Below, in pieces: positions 3,001-57,152 of a stretch of 64,000 nucleotides of DNA. This stretch comes from a virus. Position 1 is the first letter of the stretch, and each line of letters starts with the position of its first letter. The notes under the pieces were generated by a model. It was not told the origin of the DNA. It made no database searches and saw only the letters and a list, made by a program, of their open reading frames with translations. The stretch spans positions 3,179-67,178 of IMG/VR virus record IMGVR_UViG_3300021602_000007, one strand, 5' to 3'. The translations under genes and the position numbers were made by a program.

Positions 3001-4395
3001 CTCATCCTTTCCAACTAATAGGGATGCATCATTTGTATCAAGTACTTTACCAGTGATGTTCTTAACTGCTTTTGCAATAAGATCATCCATGTCAACAAAC
3101 TTATTAGGATTTATTTTTGAAAGTTCTGTCTTACCTAATCCAGGAGCAACATAATAAATTGCACTAGTTTCAGTTTTTAATGCCTTATCTTCTTTTGCAT
3201 ATTGTACCACTGCATTTTTTATAAGTGCATTATATTGCATCATATATGCAATAAACTTTCCAGCAATAGGTGGGAGATTTTTCTTATCTTTTGTGTAGGC
3301 AATCTTTGATAATAAATCTGCAAACCCTACTTCATCTATTCCTAACTTATCTTTTATCTCATTAATATCTTTAACTTGTATACCAAAGTTACTTAGATAT
3401 TTTTCTAAGATTTTAGAAGCATCACTACTTGATTCATATGCAAATTTTAAATATGTCTTATCATCTATTCTTTCGTATTTAGCTCCTACATTACCTTCAA
3501 TAACTTGCTTAGCAACTTTATTAAATGATTCAAGAAGATCAACATCTGATTTTCTATACACACTTCTTATATAATCAAGAATAGTATCCCACCAGCTTTT
3601 AACTTGTTCACGAGTAGCTTCTTGCATTAGTTCAGGAAATTCTGTACTTCCTTCAGACTGATTAATTATGAGCTCTGAGATTAGCTTATCTACAGCTTCT
3701 TTTTTAATCTTACGAATATCTGGTTTACCATTAGCTAGTTGATAGTTCTTATCATTCTTATATGCTTCTAATGTTATACCATAGATTTTAAACTTCTCTA
3801 TTTTACTTATAAGATCTGTGATAAGCTTTGGATTTGTTTGCTCTAGAATAGCTGTAGCAATGTGTACCATCTCCTCTGTAAGTGCAGCATCTTCCATATT
3901 ATTTGCCACTGCTATAACTCCTTTAACAAGATCTGCAACACCATTAATACCTTTAGTATTAAGTTTTGTTTTCTTAGCATAATCTACAAGAGCCTGGATA
4001 CTAATACCCATTTTTTCAGCAGCCTTTTTTACTTTCTCAAGGGTTTCAGCAGAAGCTTTTGATGCTGCCATTTCCTCTTTTTGAAACAAGTAATCATCTT
4101 CAAAATCTTCTTCCATGCGATCAGCATCTTCTTGCTGTACAGCAGCTGCTTCTATCCTTTCAAGATTAGTAAAATGTGCATGATATTTATCAACTAATTC
4201 AGAAGGAACATCAACTCTCACTGTATTGACATAATCATTCTCTCCTTCATGGACAGACACTACATCAAAATTATAAGACTTATTAATATTCTTAGCCTCT
4301 TGTTGAGCAAATTTCCAATTAGCAGTTTTTAAAATCTCAGCTTTTTTACCAATCTCTTTTTCAAGATTATGTCTTATTTCAATCTTACATGCCAT
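1..4395 (-). CDS. giant polyvalent virion (ejected) protein, 3'-truncated at window edge (>1465 aa)
   Basis: Absent from the ORF track because it has no stop in the window. ATG at 4395 (MACKIEIRHNLEKEIG...), just after the vRNAP stop; frame open at all positions checked down to base 1. Motifs: EEMVH (zincin-like), VAPGLGKT (P-loop), GS..HDID..RYKD (nucleotidyltransferase), IDF..VLDWK..QMGEY (PD-(D/E)XK). Confidence 0.88.
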   Translation of the reverse strand, partial: MACKIEIRHNLEKEIGKKAEILKTANWKFAQQEAKNINKSYNFDVVSVHEGENDYVNTVRVDVPSELVDKYHAHFTNLERIEAAAVQQEDADRMEEDFEDDYLFQKEEMAASKASAETLEKVKKAAEKMGISIQALVDYAKKTKLNTKGINGVADLVKGVIAVANNMEDAALTEEMVHIATAILEQTNPKLITDLISKIEKFKIYGITLEAYKNDKNYQLANGKPDIRKIKKEAVDKLISELIINQSEGSTEFPELMQEATREQVKSWWDTILDYIRSVYRKSDVDLLESFNKVAKQVIEGNVGAKYERIDDKTYLKFAYESSSDASKILEKYLSNFGIQVKDINEIKDKLGIDEVGFADLLSKIAYTKDKKNLPPIAGKFIAYMMQYNALIKNAVVQYAKEDKALKTETSAIYYVAPGLGKTELSKINPNKFVDMDDLIAKAVKNITGKVLDTNDASLLVGKDEKVAEELVKLIKEVKETHIILSPISSPKLQQLGFNYSKYYIPGESNKESIIEGISRRTTNPYNITDEEYVARYITPYETKGNIVEVNGYISDEFSDLNDSKENVSEYLSKRDYTSSDNYKDLDKDEYFERIGNLIADELTERVNVQISKSLLDKIKDIIKEFFATFKTNREAVDKINKNIATIVDGILANNRDLITVSPFKPGAEGKPVSSVSMEMALSKDSFGKSIVYKLSKYGFILTGSTALSEQGTILRPDENPLHDIDWVSPFTRKETEEKFLDAYPDAIRVRDIYGDGYVTDSYLIAPTGYKVLNYEATNYNGKIIIKSYDIVNNKGEVVGTYRLERDEKNKSKEVETGVRGKVIDFFSYNTPSAGDINTPFTFVSKDGEKIQLANWKDTFKAKLNYARYKDIWDYNRFTPNENEINRQEGRLVSTSDIFNEGDIYFQRVANDAVDNFYNTVVSYSDRMKLLDQNEDDRHYTFDLGRVAKSVTQKVKEFGKKKFNRTDAQKLVDDMKKTWGSKGHKFLEDFIKKCLLDENGYRRAIPLKTKIRSDFDPITEKSIMDFATALINSYHPDTRFLIERMVINTKVKGMLGSTIDFMAIEPDPKTGIKVDVLDWKFTSIDKTKDEDIPWYKQIEWKPQMGEYTKMLYNYGLKPEQLRKARMVPFITNYEYSVPGDRKSDLVATSVEIGKLDVLQETNLYLLPVPSIAESTGNVAVDKLLEALRHQLEKLYKKRVSGAGREEKLQQIAELGKAIRLLHLKLDFKPLLNVGTTFINNANASFDAINKIDLSTLSEAELNDQLRQLLGYQVGAEKFTALDTIFLSQFPKEGLDAEQQKLLKNLEHNSAEIQRMLNRVKEIQGEIVVHWTLKRKITTEQSKMSVVEAEVAVGGMAKTFLEGTKLGAKIVKLATNMILVATSATSRKIAKEIKRFEKILLPLEKEASARGKKAFDLIGNVRNGKLSLIRKLSDEYLEEVKDARESKDKQFFLDNMDVTQYKKLAE

Positions 4396-4398
4396 ATA

Positions 4399-7300
4399 TT
4401 ATCCTCCACAGTTTTCATTAGGTCTTTTTGTTTCGGGAAATCCTTTAGGAGCGTTTCTAGATTCTGTTCCAAGAGTTTCTCCTGTAGTTTGTGAGTAGTC
4501 TTCTAGCAATTCACCCTTTGTTATAAAATAATCATCTGATGCATACTTCTCATTTTTATCTACTTGTTCAACACCAACAACTTCTAAAATATCAGCATCT
4601 TCTACTTCTTTAACTTTATCATAATCATTATCAAGAACAGAAGCTTGAATTTTATCATAGAACTCATTTGCTCTATAAGAATCTCCCCAAGCATTAATAG
4701 CTTTATATAAATATTTTTTATATATTTTTACTTCTCCTGTTGTCTTATCTTCAGATTCAGAATATTCTATGAAAGGTTTTCTAATTCCTTTAGCATCAAA
4801 GTAATACACCTTCTTCATTAACACCTTATGTACATGAGACTTATCTCCAATTTTTCTTCTTTGGATACGTGTAGCATTACCTATAGAAGATTCCCATTGA
4901 TATGTCATGAAGTCAGATTTTCCTTCTTGAGAATAAACACTAATATTTACCACCTTAGGAATAGTTCCTTTATCTTGTGCAGATTTTAATCTTTCATCAA
5001 GAAATGCTATGTCTGGATTATAATAAGGATCACCCCATGAGCGTTTACTTTCAAGAAGTTTTGCTCTTTTGAATGCTACAACATTTGAATCATTTGCATT
5101 AGTTCTTTCAAATACATTTAGGTTGTAAAAGTCATCTAAGTTAGGTATATTTTCTAATACAGACAACACATCATTGTATTCTTCTCTAAAATCTTCATAA
5201 GGAAGAAGTGTAGTGAATGCAATAGGGGAGTTAGTTAATCCTGATTGAATCATTGAAAGACTAACTAATTTTCTATAGAGATCTTTATTCTCACTAATCA
5301 GTACTTGTTTTAATTCTTCAAAGCCACTGATTATTAAATTCTGATCATAGATTTTGTTATCTCTTCCTGTTAATTCTAAGTTATTAACCTTTCCTTTTTT
5401 GTATCCTGGATATGCATATTGTTCTATAGAATTAAGAATGATGTTATGGTATAATTCATGCTCTGGTTTTCCAGGTATACCCTTAGTTTCATTACCTAAT
5501 ATGCTATCTCTATATGCAATAATTTGTTCAGCTGCACTTTTTTCATCTTCATTTCCTAGTAATATACTTGCTATTTTAGAGTTTAACCCTTCTGGTTTAG
5601 TTTGTACAGCCCAATCAAAGAGTGTATTAACTGCCTTCTGAGCAAGTTTTACAAATTCTCTATCATTAAGATCTACGTAAGGTGTTATAACTTGTTCCAT
5701 TACATTCCTTACATTCGGTTTATCTGATAGTAGTATCTCTGCAAAAGCATCTCTGAAATCATATATGAAATCTTTAAGCTTTCCAATGTATGACTTTTCT
5801 AATAGATTATCTACAGATGATATAATAGTATTTTGTGCTCTCTCAAGTTGTAATCTTTTCTTAGTTATTAAATATGGATCATTGATAGTTGCTGTATCAA
5901 AGTTAGATCCTTGTGTTACTAAGAATAATTGTTCAGCCATCTTAGCATATTTCAAGAACTCTTTCAACATATACTGTTGTTGAGATTTTTGAAGATCTGT
6001 TAATTTATCACCTTCTTCTAAATCAGTATTTGATTTATTATACTTTAACATTTTAAATAAATCACCATCAGAAGGAATTGAACTTACTGACACCTTACTC
6101 TTTGGTTTATATGATTCCAATGTATCATTAATCATATCCTCAATAAATAACCAAGAGTATCCTCTGTTTTCTACTGATTTTAAATAATCATTAATGATAG
6201 GTTGATTCATGAAATATCCAATGGTCTTAATTGGTACACCAATCTTAGTTAAGAACAACCAAGTGGATGCAACATTAGGAGCAGCACCAATATCCATAAC
6301 CCAGGCACCTGCAGCAATATCAACATACCCATCAATAAACATTCCTATGATATCTGATATATATTCTCCAGCAGCATTTTTAATCATAGAAAGACTTGGC
6401 ATAATCTTTCCACCGATCTTCACTTTATTATATTCCTTGAAGTTAACATTAGGATCATTAGCAAATGTTATTGCTTTAGAATCACCTCCCAATATAGTTC
6501 TATCAACAGGATCTATACTATTACTCCGTGACTTATCAGTGTTAACATATGTAAGACTACGTTGATTATTAGCATGATTAGTTTGTGCTGTAGCAGCAAT
6601 ACCAATTGCATACTTACCACTTACAAATGCATATCTTAACTTAGACATGAATGTTCTGCTCATCATATTACCTACAGAAGAATAATCTACTTCAGGTATT
6701 CCCATCTCATCATTGATATCAATAGAGAGTTGTTTTAATGACTCAGCAGAGTTAGGTTTAATTAAACTCTTAAAGTTTAATGGATGAGATATAAGGTTTT
6801 GTAATGACTGAATATATGCATTCTCTAAAGCCTTTATACTATTCTGTTGATACTCACTTTGAGTAGAAAACTTTTCTATTGGCATTAGATCTAGTACCCT
6901 TGCAAGCTCAGTGATATATTCACTATCATAAAAGGCAGTTTCTTCACCTTTCATTTTAGAGAGTATAGGCTCTTTCATTATACTAGTAAGTTTAGCCACT
7001 CCTTCAATTGCTCCAGATTTACTCTTTCTGAATTTAACTAATGCTTCTTTCTTTGCATTATTTATATACTCTTCATTAGCTCCTAGTATTCTAAGCTCTT
7101 GTTTATAATTAGAAATTAAATCACCAAGAACAACATTTGTTTCATCACCAAACTCATTATCATCTAGCATATCTTCTGCCATAGCTAAATATTTTCTGAT
7201 CTCTTCAGTACCTTGAATATTATTTTTAGCCATGTAATCTCTTAGCATAAAGAATTCAGATTGTGGAGAATCTCCAAGTTTTCTAAATATCTTCTTTCCT

Positions 7301-10300
7301 AATTTAAATAATTTAGCTATCTCATCATCTTGTTCAGTGAATTCATTTTTAATATCATCATAGTCTTCTAATAATTCACTATATGCAATACCTTTTATAT
7401 CTGCAATAGTAGCTTTGTATTCTCTAGTAAGCCTATCAAACTCTGGCTTAAACTTATCTCTTATAGCAAGAATTTTATCCTTAGATAAAAACTTAACATA
7501 CTTTCTACTATCTTTAGTACTATTGCCTAATACCCACTCAGCATATCTTTCTTGTAGTGTTGAATTCTCTTTAGTAAGATATTTAATCACTGTAGGATAA
7601 CCATTCGCACCAGTTTTTAGATTCTTTAAGTATATAGAAAGTTTATCAATGTCAAAGTCACTTCCCACTTTATTTACAATAGCAGAAGGAACAACAACAG
7701 AATCACCAAAGTCTTCAGGAAGGAACTTAGCTATCTTGAATACATCAATTGAGTTCTGTTTCTGTGTAGGAATACGATATGCTACACCAAATAATGCAGC
7801 CATTTCTGCTTTACCTTCTTCTGTTTCATTGAAGTAACGAATAAGTTCTTCATCAGTTTTATCTGACTTAAACCAACGTCCAACCATTATTTCACAATAA
7901 CGCTTACCATCTTCATCTTCATAAAATTTAAGAATCTTAGATGAATATACTGTTTTTTTATTTCCAGTTTTCTTATCAGTAATCTCAGTAGTCTTTATTC
8001 TATTCTTAGATTCAAATAGTGCAGAGGTTATTTGCACTTTCATTCCTCCAGAAATTTTAGGAGAAGTAATATTTGTATCAGCAATAGAATATAATATATT
8101 TCTGATTTGTTGATATGAAGGAGTTGCTTCTAGTATAGTGTCCCCACTTGCAAATCCTGCAAAACTATCAATGATATTGTTATTAATTTCTCTCTTTTCA
8201 ATCTCTTCTCCTAGAGTAGTAATTAATTTTTCTCTATCTATTATTCTAAATTCTTTTCTATTATTTTTGTTTATAGTTTCCTTAATACCAAGTTTTCTAA
8301 GAAGAGTGTAATACCCTTGCTCAAGTTTAGCTTCTAGTAACTTTTGATTATTTTGAATTTCTTTATATAGAGGAGATGCTTCTTCCCTTTTTGCATCCGT
8401 ATCTAAAGCAATCCATTCTATGAGTCTTTCATCAAAGTCAGTAATGATGTTACCTTCTGCATCTTTCACTTCAAAATCAATAGGCATACCTCCTTCTAAG
8501 AAGTCCATAGTTACTAGTTTAGTAACTTGTGAACCCTGTGTAACTTTTGGTGAGTCTTTAGAAGGTACATCTGCTTGTAGAGCAATAATAGAGAATGGTA
8601 TTTTTGAAACTCCTTGTGGTAAATCAGAATTATTTTTTTCTTCTTCTGTTTCAAATGGATCAGTATTAAATATACCATCTTTATATAATTCAAACACTGC
8701 TTCTGTTCCCACTTTACTACCTGATTCAAATACAGCATAGTCAACATCCTCTGCTTGCATTTTATTATACAACTTAATTGCATTTGAATTAGGGTCCATT
8801 TCATGAAGAATTCTAAATGAATATGGCACCAATGCAAGTTTATGTAACACTACATCATTATAGTTTCTGCCATTCACTTTACTTCCTCTTATAATAGGTT
8901 TCCTAGGAGTGTATGTACTTCTTACATTAGGATTATTTCCTATATATCTCACTCTACCATCTTCATCTTCAACTCGTTTAATATCAAATGCTATTTCCTC
9001 ATCATTAAGAACTAGTCCTTTTTCTTGTTTTTCTTCATCTGATAGACCTTCACCCTTAACAACTTTTTCATATGCTACATCATATCTAACTTGTTTATCG
9101 TTAGAATCATTCCAGTTTCCTGTACGTATACCAAATATACGATTAGCTTTGAGTGTAATTATACCTGCACCATCTGTTTCTTTCCAAGCATTATTATATC
9201 CATCAAGATCATTTGTGCTAAGTACATCACCAACACTAATAGATCTATAATAGTTTCTATCCATATCTGTCCATCCTATGTCCCCCTCTGAATAGCCTCT
9301 ATTGTAAGCTTTATCATAAGCTTCATTAACTGATCCAGTTATAAGAGCTTGTCCTGGAGAGGTAAAGTTTCTAACACGCTTTAACTCATCAGCATATTGA
9401 TAAGGATCTGAATATAGTAATTTATGATATTCAATATTTGCAATCATGTAATTAACAGTTATCAACTTGAGTTGTTCTCTTAATGTTGCTTCAGTTAACT
9501 TCATACCTTCAGCAAATAATAAATCTTTAGCAACTAATCCTGTTTCATCGTAGTATACAATACCAAATGTTCTAAGTAATCTATCTGTGTTTGTTGCTTC
9601 TTTATTAATGAAGATTCTTACAGCATTATCAATTTGTGTTTTGAATTCTTTATATAGTTCTTCTGAAGTTGCTTCTTCTCCATTGTCCTTTTTAAAATTC
9701 ATTATATCATTATGTAACTTATTTATTTCATTATCTTTCTTTTTGGTATCATCAGCAAAGATTGCTTTAAAGAAACGAAGATCTTTAGCTTTCTTTCCTT
9801 TTACTACTGTACGTCCATCTCTAGCAAGCCCCACTTCAGACATGAAATAGTTCTTGAATATATTAATAAATGAGTTGTTTCTAAATGTAGCAGCTGTTAC
9901 AAATGGAGAACCATCATTATGCATTCTACTTGCATGTTCAATAGTTGCATCTCCAGGAACAAGATTTAAATAAATACCCACTGCATTAAGATTAAGCTCC
10001 TGTATAATCCTTTGTACCAATGATTGTTTTGCAGATGCTTTTTTCTTTCCAGTGGCTTCGTTGATTGTTCCATCAACAAAGATAGGATGCAATAGATTTT
10101 CACTATCTTCAATACGATTTCCTGTTGCATCATCATGACCAATATCAAACATGCTCTGTAGCACTACACTACCTTGACTAAACTTATCTGTAAGAAGATA
10201 TGCATAAGGTGTTTCTTCCAGCTCTTTAATATTTTTTAGTTTTGAAAGAACTGTATATAGATTACTTATTGCATTTGTACCAACAAATGCTTGTGAGCGT

Positions 10301-13300
10301 TCACCATTAATGTTAAAATATGTACTCTCAAAATCGGTATCACTATCAACAATTGCTTTAAGTATACTAAGATTTGTAAGTTGCTTAACAATATCTAATG
10401 TTTTATTACTAAATGTTTTAATACTATTGTCTATAGGTTCTCCTGTTTCTTCATCAATAACAGCTTTATTATTTTTATACACTGGACCTTTTTCAGCAAA
10501 ACTTGTTCTAATTCCATCTACAGCTTTTCTAAATACGCCAAGTTGTTTCTTATCTAATTTTTTAAGATCATTTGAAGTGAAACTGATTCCTATATTCTTT
10601 AAGAATGTTGTATACTGCTCTAGCTTGTCACTTTCTAATGTTAGTTTTTTTAATATATCTGTAGCAGAATATTTACCTGTTTTAGAATCATAACTAAAAT
10701 ATGGAGATTCATCTTCCTTAATTGTATTTACTATACTATTGAATAATTTACGTTTAGCTTGATTAGCTGCAGAACTTAACGTAGAATTAGTAACTACAAC
10801 TTCTCCTGAAGGAAGAACAAATACAGAAATAACATCTGCATTTTGTTTTTTCATGGTCTTCCAGAATTCAGAAATTAATTCAAGATCGTAATCTTTTAAA
10901 CCAGTGAATATAGATGTTTTATTTGCATCTGTAGTTACTGACTTCTTTGTAAGACGATTATACAGAGCAGCATAATTAGGATTACCTTGTGCCATTAGTT
11001 GTAATCTATTAAACATTTCATCTATATCTACAGAGTCATGCAGTTTATTCAATAGTTGAATATACACTTGATCTGCTGGTATTAACATAACACCACCTAT
11101 AGATGACTCTTCAAAGTCTAGTCCATTACTTCCTGATTCTATTTGTGGTAATGTAGCAAACAATAATTTAATAGTACTATTTGCTTTTCTAAATGAATCT
11201 ATTTTAGTAGCATCTCCATACTCACCTTTACCTGAATTATCTTCATCTCTAAGAACTGTTTCATCATTCTCATCAAATTCAACATTATAAGACTTAAGCT
11301 TCTGTTCATGTAATGCTACAATATTATCCCATTCTAATTTAACATTGTTAAATAAATCTTTCATAAGACTTATTTTTCTTTTAGATTCTGCATCTGATAT
11401 TTTTCCAATAGCTTTTTGTTTAGCATATTGTTCACTTACATATTTAATACTATCTAAAACATTAGCTCTAAGATCATTATATAACCTACTCTTAGGAATT
11501 TTATTTATTGCAAAAACACTATCATTGTTATCCATTAATCCAGCCACTGTAGCAAATGTCATTTGCTGAATTATATCATGCACTTGGGCAGATGGTATAG
11601 TTATAATCTTAGGAGTAAGTCTAAATGTAGAATCCTCATCAGCTGTAGCATAATCTCTATCTATAACCCCTCTCTTAGCATATGATAATTTAGATTCATA
11701 TGGATTATATTCTGCATAATATCCATTGCCTATTTTACTAAATAAGTTTGCTGTGTTAGTTCTAGCATTTTTACCTGTAAAGAATGTTCTAATAAAATCA
11801 ACTAACTCAGCAAACATTCTGCTAATCAATGATTTACCATATGTAGGATTAGCCACATTCTTATTAGTAATAACAAAATCTCTAAACTCCTCTGCTAGTT
11901 CTTCTCTTATTTGATCTTCACTAGCAGTTTTATATTGAATTATTTCTCCTGTGAATCTATCTTTATAGGTTCCTTCTCTGTTTCTAAATTCATCAATGAT
12001 TGCTTGTCTTTCTTTTGGACTAGTGAACATACTCCATATAGCTTCAAACACCTCATGATATGCTGTACCCACCTCTGCATTTTCATATACATAAACACCA
12101 CCTTTATGAAGCATACCCCAAGCTTGTCTGCCATTGGTAGCCTTAATCATATTCTTTAATCTATATAAAGGAATTGTTGGAAGAACTTTTTTGAAAAACT
12201 CTTCTATCTTTTCCCAATCTTCTTTTTCAAACTTTTCAGCTGGAGTGTTAAGTTTTAATCTAAATGGTTTGAATCTTTTGCTTTGTCTATTTGTGGGAGT
12301 ATTAAAGTCTTCAGAATCTGGTTCTGTTGGAAGTTCTTCTTTCTGTTCATTTAGTTTAGCTAGTTCTTTTTCATATTTAGCATTAATTTTATCAGAATCA
12401 AAATAATCTTTATATGCTTTAATTTCATCAGAATTTTCTATTTGATCATACGTTACAGAAGTAAATTTATTTTTCATATATAAATCTTGAATTAATTTAT
12501 ATATGTTATTCATTATAACTTTTAATTCTTTAAAAGGTACTGCATGAAGTAGTAGTTCATGCATATTTCCTAATCCTTCTACAGTAGCTAGTCCAAGTTG
12601 AGTAAGACTTGTACCTTTACCTAAACCAGTTAAATAAAAATTTGCAAGTTTTAATTCCTCTTTCCATTCTTTTTCTAATTTAGCTTTCTTAGCTTCTATA
12701 TCAGAAGAAGCTTGTTTTTTAGTAGTTTTCTTTACTTCTGGCTTACTGACTTCTATGCCTTCTTCAGCTAAATCTTCATTGCTTATAAAGCTCTTAGTAC
12801 CAGTGGCTAGATTTGTTACATCAACTCCTTTAGCAGTTATCTTTATCACTTGATAATCACCACCTTGAAATCTTAAGTCATCACCTTTATTAATAAGTGA
12901 TGTGGTAACTTCTTCTCCTCCCATGAAGGATTCTGTACCAATTAGTTCCTTATTATAGTTTAGAATTGAAGGAATTGATTCTTTAAATATTGTTCCATAT
13001 ATAAACTGAAGAGCAAATTGATTATCTTTTGATTCACCACTTAGCTGTGATAAGACACTACTAAGTGCATTTAGATTTTCCTCAGTGACACCAGTAACTA
13101 AAAGAATACCTTCATCTCGTAATAATTTTATAAAGGCACTGAACTCAACACTTTGAGGATCATCAAGAATGTCTTCCTTCTGTGATTTTAATTCATCAAG
13201 TACTCTCTTTCTATCAATAGTATACTTAGCAACTCCTCCACTTTTCAATGGTCTCTCTCCTTCTACAATTCCTGTAGGAGTAGTTATTAATGGTTTAACT

Positions 13301-53619: not shown

Positions 53620-53960
53620 GAAATCCTCTTATTTAAAGCATTGATATTATTCTCCACCGTATTCATTGTAGCTGTCACTTGCTTTCTCTTCTGTTCTGTA
53701 ACATCCTCTTTAGCCAGCTCATTATTCAACACCTCCATCTGTGAAGAATACTTCTTCATTGCCCTATCAACTCTCTTCTGTGTAAGAACAAACTTCCCAA
53801 ACCCAGAAAGCTCCACTGTCCTATATTTTGAAAGAGCATCAAGAGCAGAACCAAATTGATGATTAATAACAATCTCAAGCGTCTTCTCAGAAATCATCAT
53901 ATCAACAGCCATCTTCCTAATAAGGAAATTCTTTACAGAAAGACTAATTGGTTTGTCCAT
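53616..53960 (-). CDS. HU/IHF-like DNA-binding protein
   Basis: VELSGFGKF signature; likely start at ATG 53960 (MDKP). Confidence 0.65.
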   Translation of the reverse strand: MDKPISLSVKNFLIRKMAVDMMISEKTLEIVINHQFGSALDALSKYRTVELSGFGKFVLTQKRVDRAMKKYSSQMEVLNNELAKEDVTEQKRKQVTATMNTVENNINALNKRIS

Positions 53961-54306
53961 GAACAAGCTTTATTTCCAATGTAACATCCTTATTGAAATC
54001 CAACAGAATAATTGGATTCACCTTTATCTTCCCCTTATCCTTAATTAAAACATGTATTCTCTTAAGCTTACTAATAATATTATTAATCGTAGGAGACGTT
54101 GTATTATACTTCTTACAAAAATCTTCTCTCACATTAGCATATGACATATTACCCCTAATAGCTGTAAAAGCTATGAGCTGTATTTCCCTTGTCGTAAGCT
54201 TCAAATCATTAATAGCAGAAAGGAGAGAATAATATCTCTCAGCCAATAATAAACTATTATCAACAGACTTCTTAAGACTCTGAACTATTATTTTGGTTTC
54301 CATCAT
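53944..54306 (-). CDS. winged-helix DNA-binding protein
   Basis: LTTREIQL...TSPTINNIISKLKR..VL..KIKVNP HTH/wing pattern; first gene of the late operon. Confidence 0.6.
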   Translation of the reverse strand: MMETKIIVQSLKKSVDNSLLLAERYYSLLSAINDLKLTTREIQLIAFTAIRGNMSYANVREDFCKKYNTTSPTINNIISKLKRIHVLIKDKGKIKVNPIILLDFNKDVTLEIKLVHGQTN

Positions 54307-54320
54307 TTAGTTTATATGTA

Positions 54321-54351
54321 CAAAGATAAACCTAATTATAACAATTCCAAT
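54321..54351 (-). promoter_or_regulatory. Bacteroidota sigmaA-type promoter heading the late/structural operon
   Basis: Minus strand ATTG-N19-TATCTTTG, 14 nt upstream of the ATG at 54306. Confidence 0.7.
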
Positions 54352-54646
54352 TGTTTCAATATTGTATATTGCTATATTATCCCTTAAATTGTTTTGATGT
54401 ATGTAGACCAAGCCCTACCACCGCCCCAAAGGTCAAACTAAAAAATCACATTTCCAAATCTTTTTAAATTTTTTTTTCTATAGGGCCAGAGAGGCATCTT
54501 GTGAGTGTGCTTGTCATAATTTTTTTCTACCCCCCCATAGTGATGTGTATATGGGAGGAGAGCCTACTACCAATTACAACCCCACCTATTTTTTAGCCTT
54601 CAGGGGGTGGGCTCCCTACATTAATAAACTTTAATACTATTCGATT

Positions 54647-55057
54647 ATGGCAAATGTTACAGAATTATTAGCAAAGGTTGATCGTCGCGAAGATCAGCAA
54701 TCAGAAAACACAAGTGTTGGTACTCTTCCAGAGATTTTTAAGGGCTACTCAACGTTGCTTGTTCGCAGGAGCAAAACTAAAGCAGAGCGTGCCACGATCT
54801 TGTACAAGAAATTGAACGAGACTACAAACAAGGTGGAAGTAATTACTGTGATTTGCAGTAAAGATCTGACTCAATTAGTACGTTCCTACAGAGTGGGAAT
54901 GGGAGAGATCAGTGGATTTCCAGTATTCCACAATGACAAACAAAATCAGTTCTATGTGGGAATGCCTGGCCAAGGATGGACAGAGCAAGATGATATCATT
55001 GTAAAGGAATGGTCTCCTGAGGCCATTGATTACAATAATCTCGCAGGAGCGATGTAG
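54647..55057 (+). CDS. hypothetical protein, first gene of the early module
   Basis: 136-aa ORF with A/T-rich leader, divergent from the structural operon. Confidence 0.75.
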   Translation: MANVTELLAKVDRREDQQSENTSVGTLPEIFKGYSTLLVRRSKTKAERATILYKKLNETTNKVEVITVICSKDLTQLVRSYRVGMGEISGFPVFHNDKQNQFYVGMPGQGWTEQDDIIVKEWSPEAIDYNNLAGAM

Positions 55058-55064
55058 TCTGTGC

Positions 55065-55370
55065 AGAGAGAGAGCTTGCCCTTCGGGGCTCTCTCTTGAA
55101 GCATATATAAGGGTGGGTGAACAACGAATTCATTCGTACAGTTGGGTGGGTTAATTCACAACAAATGTTCATTCATCCTTATATATCTTCTACACTAATG
55201 GTATATTACCTTCTCTTTAAATTTTTACGAGAGAGCAATGGTAATTTAGCATTAGTTTGTTAGTGTTTGTTGGGTGAGAATGTAGTGCTGTAGCACCTCT
55301 CAATGGTAATAACCGTTAATATTTGATACGGAATTATCAAAATACAAACATTACATATAGCATTAGTGAT
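55065..55370 (+). ncRNA. candidate structured non-coding RNA
   Basis: C(UUCG)G hairpin; 21-bp stem 55103-55123/55166-55186 with 3 G-U pairs enclosing two hairpins; further stems 55194-55256 and 55261-55353. Confidence 0.5.
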
Positions 55371-55430
55371 ATATTATTATCATATATAGAATAAATATTT
55401 TCTTCTTATATGTATTGATATATATTTATA

Positions 55431-55490
55431 TTCTGTTCTTGGACTATTGTTCAAGCTGATGATGACCTAATAGAAGGTCGAAACAAAAAA
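55431..55490 (+). ncRNA. type III hammerhead ribozyme (variant core)
   Basis: GUU triplet; stem I CUUGGAC-UAUU-GUUCAAG; CUGAUGA(U); stem II GACCU-AAUAGA-AGGUC; GAAA; stem III UUCUGU/ACAAAA; loops I and II are complementary. Confidence 0.72.
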
Positions 55491-55525
55491 GTATTTAATT
55501 ATATAAACTCAAATCTTATTTAATT

Positions 55526-55720
55526 ATGAAACCAATTTATTCAAGTAAACAAGTGCAGCGTGATGCTGACATACGTGTGTATACACGTGAGAGTGAAAAT
55601 TATATCAAACAGCAGAGATATGAAGCTGCTGTAATGATAGCTACTCAAAAGGAGAGATTCAATATTAGAACCTATCCAGAGACAGAACAAGATTATCATA
55701 ACTTAGTAAATCATATATAA
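55526..55720 (+). CDS. hypothetical protein
   Basis: 64 aa; AATTATG leader. Confidence 0.65.
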   Translation: MKPIYSSKQVQRDADIRVYTRESENYIKQQRYEAAVMIATQKERFNIRTYPETEQDYHNLVNHI

Positions 55721-55721
55721 T

Positions 55722-55847
55722 ATGAAAGTTATAATAATACTATTGTTAATGAGCATTATGTGCTCTTGTGGTGTTCAATATTATGGAACATCAGGTTCGT
55801 GGAAACAGAATAAATGTACTAAACCTTATAAATACAACAGACGATGA
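55722..55847 (+). CDS. small putative lipoprotein, 41 aa (not in ORF track)
   Basis: MKVIIILLLMSIMCSC-GVQYY...: basic N-terminus, hydrophobic core, xxSC lipobox. Confidence 0.55.
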   Translation: MKVIIILLLMSIMCSCGVQYYGTSGSWKQNKCTKPYKYNRR

Positions 55848-55945
55848 ATTTAAATTTTGACTTTGAGAGGATTACTAATGTACTAATTTTAATGTTATGT
55901 ACATTAATAACATATTACATTGTAGTAAAATTTATTATTAACTAA
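55844..55945 (+). CDS. small membrane protein, 33 aa (not in ORF track)
   Basis: MNLNFDFERITNVLILMLCTLITYYIVVKFIIN*; ATGA overlap with the previous ORF. Confidence 0.5.
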   Translation: MNLNFDFERITNVLILMLCTLITYYIVVKFIIN

Positions 55946-55948
55946 TTT

Positions 55949-55990
55949 GAGTTTCCGAAAGGCACATATGTGCTGAGTAGGAAGCTTTTT
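55949..55990 (+). other. hairpin with E-loop (GAAA/GAGUA) internal motif, followed by a U-tract
   Basis: GAGTTTCC-GAAA-GGCAC-ATAT-GTGCT-GAGTA-GGAAGCTT-TTT. Confidence 0.6.
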
Positions 55991-56013
55991 ATAAACTATT
56001 ATATAGCATTGTT

Positions 56014-56265
56014 ATGAAAAACATTAGTTGGAGTGAGAATATGAATGGTTATACAGAGGGAAGCACACTTGTCCTCACTACTAAACCAAAGGAAGAAGTT
56101 GTAACATTAGATGTTGCAATAGAAGTGCAAAAGGCTATTGATAGTCTCACTGATATCATATATAATATTAATGATGTGTATAATTATAAGGCACATAAAG
56201 AACTATATGATGTGCAAGTTTCATTAGTGCTGGCTAAAAGAGCATTGATGAGAATAATAAAATAG
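56014..56265 (+). CDS. hypothetical protein
   Basis: 83-aa ORF. Confidence 0.65.
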   Translation: MKNISWSENMNGYTEGSTLVLTTKPKEEVVTLDVAIEVQKAIDSLTDIIYNINDVYNYKAHKELYDVQVSLVLAKRALMRIIK

Positions 56266-56274
56266 TTATATTTG
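56244..56274 (+). promoter_or_regulatory. Bacteroidota sigmaA-type promoter
   Basis: ATTG-N19-TATATTTG, 20 nt before ATG 56295. Confidence 0.55.
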
Positions 56275-56294
56275 TATTTTAAATATATACGTAT

Positions 56295-56504
56295 ATGAGA
56301 AACATTTGGGATAAAATAATGGGATACCATTACATTGTGAATCTTCATACACATAAGGTTCATAAGTTAGATGATTTGCATCATTTATGTGGTGTAGATA
56401 AGATTACATCAGAGCATAGATGGAAGATATCAAAACATCAATTGCTAAGATATAGTCATGCATTAATTAAGTGTCACCTTTGCTTTAAACATGAGCGAGA
56501 CTAA
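56295..56504 (+). CDS. small His/Cys-rich hypothetical protein
   Basis: VH...C...CHLC; possible metal binding. Confidence 0.6.
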   Translation: MRNIWDKIMGYHYIVNLHTHKVHKLDDLHHLCGVDKITSEHRWKISKHQLLRYSHALIKCHLCFKHERD

Positions 56505-56589
56505 AGGAGGAATGTGTGCAGGATGTAACACATGGTATTATTTCTTATTATGTCCCAAGTGTGGAAGCGTAGTAATAATTAAAAATTAA
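56491..56589 (+). CDS. 32-aa zinc-ribbon microprotein (not in ORF track)
   Basis: MSETKGGMCAGCNTWYYFLLCPKCGSVVIIKN*; CxxC and CPKCG motifs. Confidence 0.55.
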   Translation: MSETKGGMCAGCNTWYYFLLCPKCGSVVIIKN

Positions 56590-56594
56590 AAATT

Positions 56595-57152
56595 ATGTAT
56601 TACAAATTCAATGAAGAACTGCTAACATTTACAGAAGTGAAGATGGTAAAGAAAGCATTTGCTATTGTAGGAATTATAGCAACTGCCATTACAATAATCA
56701 GCTGGTCAGCTGTTAAGATTGATAAAAAGCTCACAGAGAGGCAAGTATTGATCATAATGGCTCAACAGAATCAGTTTACTGAAGGTAAATTGGTGGATCA
56801 TATTAAGGAAATGAATTTTCAGTTTCCTTATATAGTATATGCACAAGCATTGTTAGAAACAAATAACTTTCATTCAAGGATATTTGTAGAGAATAATAAT
56901 CTATTTGGTATGAAAGAGGCTACACAACGTGTCACTCTTTCTAAAGGATCACAGAACAATCATGCTTATTATAAGAACTGGTCAGATTCTGTATATGATT
57001 ACGGATTCTATTGTGCAACATATTTATCTAAACTTAAGACAGAAGATGATTATTATAATTATCTTTCACAATCTTATGCTGAAGATGGAGAATATGTTAT
57101 TAAGCTAAAGAATATTATAGACAGAGAGAATTTAAAATCAAAATTTAACTAA
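56595..57152 (+). CDS. GH73 glucosaminidase-family peptidoglycan hydrolase with N-terminal membrane anchor
   Basis: AQALLET (catalytic Glu), NNLFGMK, W.DSV.DY and YAED..Y motifs; TM segment AFAIVGIIATAITIISW. Confidence 0.8.
   Translation: MYYKFNEELLTFTEVKMVKKAFAIVGIIATAITIISWSAVKIDKKLTERQVLIIMAQQNQFTEGKLVDHIKEMNFQFPYIVYAQALLETNNFHSRIFVENNNLFGMKEATQRVTLSKGSQNNHAYYKNWSDSVYDYGFYCATYLSKLKTEDDYYNYLSQSYAEDGEYVIKLKNIIDRENLKSKFN

Follow-up and report, generated by a model that had tools for sequence, protein, structure and literature searches.

A probable type III hammerhead ribozyme of a conserved family in aquatic crAss-like and related phages, with slower cutting predicted

Introduction

Hammerhead ribozymes have been known from phages since 2011, and their use there is described as an open question (PMC6155905). 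In phages and prophages they are reported to be clustered and to flank genes, and it was proposed that they cut long transcripts into gene-length messenger RNAs (mRNAs) (PMC3088659); small non-conserved open reading frames (ORFs) are reported to adjoin those of prokaryotes (PMC6155905). The present work concerns an element of this kind at positions 55431-55490 (+) of a stretch of 64,000 nucleotides (nt), hereafter the window, which makes up most of the IMG/VR virus record IMGVR_UViG_3300021602_000007 (positions 3,179 to 67,178 of that record). The element is considered here, with a probability of roughly 0.7, to be a type III hammerhead self-cleaving ribozyme belonging to a conserved family of aquatic crAss-like and related phages, and it is predicted to cut more slowly in this phage than in its relatives.

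The type III hammerheads of the Rfam family RF00008, and the bacterial and phage hammerheads described by Perreault et al. in 2011, have the same eleven-base core, the same three helices, an open stem III and H at position 17 (PMC3088659), and the phage hammerheads of that type are likewise described as intergenic, beside small non-conserved ORFs and sometimes present as paired copies (PMC3088659, PMC6155905). The crAss-like family differs from RF00008 in a nearly constant U between A9 and G10.1, in the fixed loops UAUU and AAUUGA and in its syntenic site, and the RF00008 model scores neither the window copy nor three tested relatives at E<=10. An extra base at the identical core position is found in the hammerhead of CChMVd(+), where it is reported to be tolerated and where U was the most active base in trans, raising trans-cleavage 3-4 fold (PMC3705267, PMC1636495). 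That hammerhead belongs to a viroid, an RNA replicon with a natural extra A, whereas the phage family resides in DNA phages and has a natural U. The extra A10 of CChMVd(+) is said, in papers that cite the work, to have been described by De la Pena & Flores in 2001.

With respect to placement, the HHphage hammerhead of a halovirus also heads early genes; it is described as preceding the first ORF on a polycistronic early transcript, and a transcript 5' end was mapped no more than three nucleotides from the cut (PMC3088659). It differs in its insertions near C3 and stem I, its salt dependence and its archaeal host (PMC3088659), and no sequence relation between it and the crAss-like family was seen. 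Hatchet (RF02678) is also a self-cleaving RNA of the same kind of phage, with a different fold and a different position of the cleavage site, and it is reported to be largely confined to Crassvirales (10.64898/2026.03.07.710320). No hatchet was found in the window at the Rfam gathering score.

Architecture of the window copy

The element reads UUCUGU-U-CUUGGAC-UAUU-GUUCAAG-CUGAUGA-U-GACCU-AAUAGA-AGGUC-GAA-ACAAAA from 5' to 3' (Table 1), and the sequence and coordinates given in an initial annotation of this DNA agree with it letter for letter. That annotation had read the element as a type III hammerhead, complete in its core and with a GUU cleavage site, and the anatomy bears it out: the core bases C3 U4 G5 A6 N7 G8 A9 and G12 A13 A14 are all present, the A15.1-U16.1 pair is formed by A55483 and U55436, and position 17 is H and not G (U55437). 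The core is interrupted between A9 and G10.1 by the extra U55463, and stem III of the window copy contains a C·A mismatch, C55433 standing opposite A55486.

Both strands of the window were scanned with our own descriptor, consisting of CUGANGA, 0-1 inserted base, stem II, GAAA, stem I, UH, and stem III with at most one mismatch. The single type III hammerhead-like site detected was 55431-55490. Among 400 dinucleotide-preserving shuffles of the window, a loose match occurred in 22, and three matches had stems of at least 5, 5 and 4 pairs; in no shuffle did the stems reach 7, 5 and 5 pairs. Since about 250,000 windows were scanned, the shuffle test is insufficient alone and the case rests on the relatives.

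Relatives, covariation and covariance models

Two patterns were used for retrieving relatives from IMG/VR. The first, CTGTHNNNGGACN{3,8}GTYCNNNCTGATGA, is fixed at CUGUH, across the inner half of stem I and at CUGAUGA, with the extra U and loop II left free. It retrieved 12 loci, comprising nine full hammerheads, two identical split forms and one unrelated locus, and all nine full loci have the U, a stem II of 5 base pairs (bp), an AAUYGA loop and GAAACAG, none of which is constrained by the pattern. The second, CTGATGATGNNNTAATNGANNNNCGAAAC, specifies the core with its extra U, most of loop II and the ends of stem II, and places no constraint on stem I, position 17 or stem III. It retrieved 35 sites in 33 phage contigs; the L111 site is truncated at its 5' end, and the 5' part is therefore readable in 34, and in every one of these (34/34) there is a stem I of 7 bp, GUC at the cleavage site and a stem III. 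When identical repeats were merged, the 35 sites collapsed to 29 distinct 63-nt sequences. The second pattern had 0 matches in 596 Gb of prokaryote genomes, which gave no host clue, and the exact 29-nt core of the window copy had 0 matches in IMG/VR viral contigs. Against GenBank phages, blastn with window 54300-56600 gave no match, and the 71-nt motif gave short chance matches inside coding genes only.

The alignment A2 comprises the window copy and 27 relatives (28 sequences); L088b and L093b, whose 5-nt loop I is misplaced by the gapless alignment, were dropped from it and from the alignment A4. The initial annotation had pointed to covariation in homologous loci as a check, and covariation was found when it was looked for. 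Over the three stems 97.8% of 504 cells pair, compared with 77.2% after shuffling and 35-49% after sliding; 13 of the 18 pairs have double-sided changes, in 106 cells, and the covariation score was reached by 0 of 500 shuffles. All seven pairs of stem I change on both sides, with 99.5% of cells pairing, as do three of the five pairs of stem II, with 100% of cells pairing, and three of the six pairs of stem III. The test is fair for stems I and III because both are free in the second pattern; the invariance of the core CUGAUGA in the alignment is imposed by the search patterns.

Two covariance models, R2, built from A4 without the window copy, and R1, which includes it, were used in searches covering the window and the retrieved loci. 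R2 scores the window copy at 72.1 bits (E 1.1e-17) over its full length, 1-63, and the next match in the window is at 12 bits. With R1, full-length family members score 71-89 bits, and weaker second copies in L102, L099 and L112, in which the extra U and GUC are present, score 43-52 bits. Judged by these sequence comparisons, the window motif is a real member of a conserved hammerhead family and not a chance occurrence.

The extra core U, which had been singled out in the initial annotation, proved to be a feature of the family. It is present in 9/9 full hammerheads retrieved by the pattern that leaves it free, and 35 sites were found with it against one without it when it was removed from the second pattern. 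That single match, L123:5802-5829 (-), shares its contig with L118. It shows the canonical type III hammerhead architecture; its cleavage triplet is GUA, its stem III (UUCGU/ACGAA) covaries, and a hairpin immediately precedes it. The extra base is thus U in 35/36 of the relatives' sites and in the window. A family hammerhead split in two was also observed, at L086:11237-11411 (-) and, identically, at L091:2745-2919 (-); its 5' half extends up to CUGAUGA and its 3' half from stem II to GAAACAGAAAC, with ~70-110 nt inserted exactly at the site of the other members' extra U.

One element of the initial annotation was not supported. Loop I (UAUU) and part of loop II (AAUA) had been proposed as Watson-Crick kissing loops forming a required contact, yet 0/4 of these pairs change on both sides, they form in 67.9% of cells versus 67.8% when shuffled and 69.6% when slid by one column, and the pair U55445-A55472 forms in the window only (1/28). 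Loop II is AAUUGA in 26 of the 28 sequences, AAUCGA in one and AAUAGA in the window only. It is partly fixed by the second pattern; among the full sites of the first pattern, which leaves it free, it is AAUUGA in eight and AAUCGA in one. The sequence conservation of loops I and II fits a specific tertiary contact, with no sign of a Watson-Crick helix.

Conserved position and mobility

Homologues of window genes stand beside the ribozyme in L098, L101/L109, L110, L117, L092 and L096, including the portal (87% identity), a protein of 673 amino acids (aa) (83-85%), several small leftward genes and the leftward gene 53944-54306 (58-70%). The element thus holds its position in at least six related loci: 1.16-2.01 kb separate it there from the start of the divergent 53944-54306 homologue, and in the window the distance to the start of that gene is 1.12 kb. 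When window 54300-55800 was compared by blastn with 7-nt words, 55430-55495 was the sole similarity to L098, L110, L092 and L096, and L101/L109 shared the ribozyme plus one 37-nt piece. The ribozyme is nearly the sole DNA shared there, and thus nearly the sole item kept by selection in this region.

Five complete or nearly complete genomes of 95-143 kb contain one copy each, and one of them has a second, weaker copy. An ATG-initiated ORF of at least 40 aa begins within 50 nt downstream (11-47 nt) in 24/32 distinct contexts, and no ORF spans the element in 29/32. Such a leader placement agrees with that of the window copy, for which the initially annotated distance of 88 nt from the cut to ORF 55526 was confirmed; the element ends 36 nt ahead of the ATG at 55526 and lies 373 nt past the 136-aa ORF. 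Among the 29 distinct downstream proteins there are 25 groups, and 22 of these consist of a single protein, in agreement with the small non-conserved ORFs reported beside prokaryotic hammerheads (PMC6155905). Upstream folding covered 19 of the 27 distinct relatives in A4, and 11 of the 19 have a hairpin of -8 to -22 kcal/mol that ends a few bases from stem III.

Contigs from four other metagenome runs were aligned to window 54300-56600; no RNA run was listed as containing the phage. A 151-nt contig of run X3 aligns at 55430-55489 only, with nine differences, and a 151-nt contig of run X5 at 55441-55490 only, with four; the flanks of both are unlike the window, and the loose end of the X5 contig retains CUGU with C at position 17. 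In run X2, a contig covers 55366-55554 with 0 differences and is joined to unlike DNA at both ends. A second X2 contig matches the window without difference over 54300-55364, from which point it departs from it. The breakpoints of the X2 contigs at 55364-55366 and 55554 point to mosaic exchange around a ribozyme cassette, and as the X2, X3 and X5 contigs share the ribozyme with unlike flanks, the 60-nt unit moves independently.

Several family observations concern additional structured RNAs. Two same-strand family hammerheads 0.45-1 kb apart bracket one or two small ORFs in several phages (Table 1). A Hatchet ribozyme (RF02678, 79.9 bits, E 8.8e-15) at L094:7430-7583 (+) follows the family hammerhead L094:6951-7013 on the same strand, at a distance of ~420 nt. 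In L110, a contig of a related crAss-like phage, a tmRNA gene (RF00023, 67.9 bits) lies at 11609-11996 (+), 4.6 kb downstream of the hammerhead.

Proposed mechanism

The architecture, family membership, covariation and conserved position of the element are established; cleavage and biological use are inferred. In a rightward transcript through the element, stems I, II and III would assemble around the CUGAUGA/GAA core, and the 2'-OH of U55437 would attack its own 3' phosphate. The upstream product, containing the 136-aa ORF and the ~370-nt non-coding stretch, would end in a 2',3'-cyclic phosphate, and the mRNA downstream of the cut would have its 5'-OH at C55438 and would then run through the folded stems I and II and an A-rich leader to the ATG at 55526. 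Cyclic-phosphate and 5'-OH ends are the established chemistry of hammerhead cleavage. Such cleavage would likely serve to make the downstream message independent of what happens to the upstream RNA, and to provide that message with a structured 5' end lacking a triphosphate.

Processing of a longer rightward transcript, leaving an mRNA with a 5'-OH end, can reasonably be supposed because of the spacing of the 136-aa ORF and the ATG, because no terminator stands between them and, weakly, because TANNTTTG is missing from the + strand. In a sigma-70 and terminator scan of 54300-56100, promoter-like sites were fewer than in shuffles and no terminator was found. TANNTTTG, which we take to be the Bacteroidota -7 promoter element, does not occur on the + strand between 54328 and 56267; this is a weak hint, the motif not being enriched in the window (92 found versus 88 expected). 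The motif TATCTTTG, matching TANNTTTG, was noticed at window 54321-54328 (-), 15 nt ahead of the leftward gene 53944-54306. The candidates TAGCATTA and ATATAGCW were considered as early promoters and dropped, as neither is enriched in the window.

Evidence against an active ribozyme and alternative explanations

Several observations weigh against an active hammerhead ribozyme in the window. The first group comes from Rfam. The Infernal search with Rfam hammerhead models that the initial annotation had suggested was run and gave no match: the window copy does not reach the RF00008 gathering score of 48.5 bits; at E<=10, Rfam found no hammerhead in 55300-55620 (321 nt), where it gave chance matches to unrelated families only; and RF00008 and RF02276 at E<=10 found nothing in the whole source record. 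The relatives fared alike. At the gathering score there was no hammerhead in the window, nine family loci or ten further loci, Rfam at E<=10 gave chance matches to unrelated families only in the relative L106, and RF00008 missed the ribozymes on the records of L106, L089 and L114, with one 14-bit match elsewhere. Since the tested relatives were missed equally, the Rfam miss reflects the models and not the RNA.

The second group concerns the window copy itself, which departs from the family consensus in four places: C17U, G15.4A, AAUUGA to AAUAGA in loop II, and U-A in place of the closing U·G in stem II. The initial annotation had named the U at the cleavage position and the mismatch in stem III as weak points, and both are real and specific to this copy. 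U17 is found in the window alone (1/28), the 27 relatives in A2 all having C, and the triplet is GUC in 34/34 visible relatives' sites and GUA in the one U-less relative. The 16.4-15.4 mismatch is likewise found in the window alone (1/28), and 24/28 sequences have G at 15.4 paired to C. The GUC triplet and the fully paired stem III (UCUGU/ACAGA) that characterise the family are thus both missing here. In the minimum-energy fold (RNAfold, -13.7 kcal/mol), stems I and II are formed and stem III is absent, whereas the full three-way junction was predicted for 5/5 relatives, with energies of -17.7 to -21.5 kcal/mol. Unlike 11/19 relatives, the window copy has no strong abutting upstream hairpin. 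Finally, the close syntenic relative L002/L082 keeps the downstream gene and 24 nt of its leader and has no ribozyme at E<=1, so the element is dispensable.

These departures could be explained if the family is real and C17U and G15.4A have deprived the window copy of useful activity, leaving it as no more than a relic in an AT-rich genome. The two window-only changes, the lack of stem III in the predicted fold and the tolerated loss in a close relative would all agree with such decay, as would the nature of the changes, three of the four being G-to-A or C-to-U transitions. We nevertheless regard it as unlikely, although it is the alternative that survives best. The element still scores 72 bits, with nothing lost from its eleven-base core or from either capped stem, the three core-adjacent pairs of stem III (A-U, C-G, A-U) remain, and the stretch 55366-55554 recurs with 0 differences in a second sample, run X2. 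GUU is listed among the active NUH cleavage sites (PMC3138052), and weak stems III are described as common in active natural hammerheads (PMC3088659). As an extra base between A9 and G10.1 is tolerated as well, the changes in the window copy need not abolish activity; cleavage probably persists in this copy at a lower rate than in the relatives, and the ribozyme may be impaired.

A more speculative idea, which we hold to be rather improbable, is that the ribozyme and not a promoter sets the 5' end of the first downstream early message, and that U17 and the loose stem III make it a tuned slow cutter. A hammerhead at a fixed position would then separate the upstream non-coding RNA from the mRNA, and slow cutting would set the ratio of joined to released RNA and would not signify decay. 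The idea draws on the model crAss-like phage phi14:2, for which it is reported that a virion RNA polymerase makes the early transcripts, that these have no common upstream motif, and that long early non-coding RNAs accumulate (10.1101/2020.03.07.982082). No family member was found in phi14:2, nor any Rfam match in its first 12 kb, and the parallel is therefore an analogy only.

The conserved motif might also be a structured leader that does not cut, for instance an element binding a protein or the ribosome or a 5' stabiliser, in which the hammerhead core is kept for its fold. Its place 11-47 nt ahead of a start codon in most contexts and the conservation of loops I and II without covariation would suit such a role. 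We consider it very improbable, for every catalytic base is kept, including G12, G8 and the A15.1-U16.1 pair, and position 17 is H and never G in 37/37 sites, which a plain structure would not need; a Hatchet self-cleaving ribozyme also lies beside one member. As for a chance resemblance, that is, an AT-rich intergenic stretch that happens to hold CUGAUGA and GAAA between two hairpins, the missing Rfam match, a fold z-score of only -1.57 to -2.08 and the rare chance matches expected somewhere in so wide a scan speak for it. Against it stand the 0/400 equal shuffles, the leave-one-out E-value of R2, the covariation of the family and the syntenic position in related phages, which leave it next to no probability and refute it to the extent that computation allows.

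Genome and neighbouring genes

The source record is a 67-kb IMG/VR virus record, estimated to be 58% complete, with ~32% G+C. Genes in the window include those for a major capsid protein of Crassvirus type (PF23898, 95 bits) and for a P22-like portal, and there is a 4711-aa ORF. The structural genes run leftward and end at 54306, and the rightward genes start at 54647, which places the motif close to the beginning of the rightward (early/replication) block. The proteins of the 136-aa and 64-aa ORFs that flank the ribozyme (Table 1) matched no Pfam or PHROG family. The sole homologue found for the 136-aa protein, 77% identical, is on a 780-nt contig, and a locus search with this protein recovered none. 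Homologues of the 64-aa ORF occur in L002 (66%) and L005 (36%), neither of them preceded by a ribozyme. For the 185-aa glucosaminidase-like protein encoded further downstream, 80 loci were retrieved, of which L002 and L005 alone are syntenic, and both are ribozyme-free. Exact scans with a 24-nt piece of the leader and a 24-nt conserved anchor found the L002/L082 contig only; in metagenome contigs, the anchor was found in the L002/L082 contig and in a 4.8-kb contig that ends short of the ribozyme site.

Window 55071-55303 is 71% identical to L082:5465-5694. A separate non-coding stretch, window 54300-54594, is 92% identical to L082:4752-5046, and the flanking proteins are merely 60-70% identical; it adjoins the start of the leftward gene, has G/C-rich blocks in an AT-rich genome and is covered by contigs of runs X3 and X4.

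Table 1. Coordinates of the ribozyme parts, the neighbouring features of the window and the paired family copies in other phages
Feature	Position	Strand	Remark
Stem III, 5' strand UUCUGU (positions 16.6-16.1)	55431..55436	+	pairs with 55483-55488
Position 17, U	55437..55437	+	predicted cut 3' of U, between 55437 and 55438
Stem I, 7 bp (one G-U), loop I UAUU	55438..55455	+	strands 55438-55444 and 55449-55455
Core C3-U4-G5-A6-U7-G8-A9 (CUGAUGA)	55456..55462	+	
Extra U between A9 and G10.1	55463..55463	+	
Stem II, 5 bp, loop II AAUAGA	55464..55479	+	strands 55464-55468 and 55475-55479
Core G12-A13-A14 (GAA)	55480..55482	+	
Stem III, 3' strand ACAAAA (positions 15.1-15.6)	55483..55488	+	family consensus ACAGAA
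136-aa ORF, first rightward gene, upstream of the ribozyme	54647..55057	+	presumably co-transcribed
Non-coding stretch that would remain on the 5' cleavage product	55065..55370	+	
64-aa ORF, ribozyme in its leader	55526..55720	+	ATG 88 nt from 55438
Paired copies	L088:9313-9375 and 9763-9826		
Paired copies	L093:12886-12948 and 12433-12496		
Paired copies	L102:7375-7437 and 8422-8484		
Paired copies	L099:4228-4290 and 4695-4753		

Significance

Phage hammerheads, an extra base at A9/G10.1 and hatchet ribozymes in Crassvirales are already known. A search of a literature library returned no paper combining 'hammerhead' with 'crAss-like' or 'crAssphage'; the supplementary alignments of 2011 (PMC3088659) may contain members of the family. 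The useful additions made here are a defined family missed by Rfam, its syntenic site in crAss-like phages, and a natural GUU variant with a weak stem III. The standard Rfam models are blind to the family, and annotation pipelines will therefore miss its members; the models R1 and R2 or the 29-nt pattern could be used for annotating them. With usually one copy per genome of ~95-120 kb, at a syntenic site, often directly behind a strong hairpin and ~20 nt ahead of a start codon, the family offers a clean case for study, and the window copy with its GUU triplet and weak stem III forms, together with the 34 GUC sites, a ready-made pair for the question of cleavage speed in vivo.

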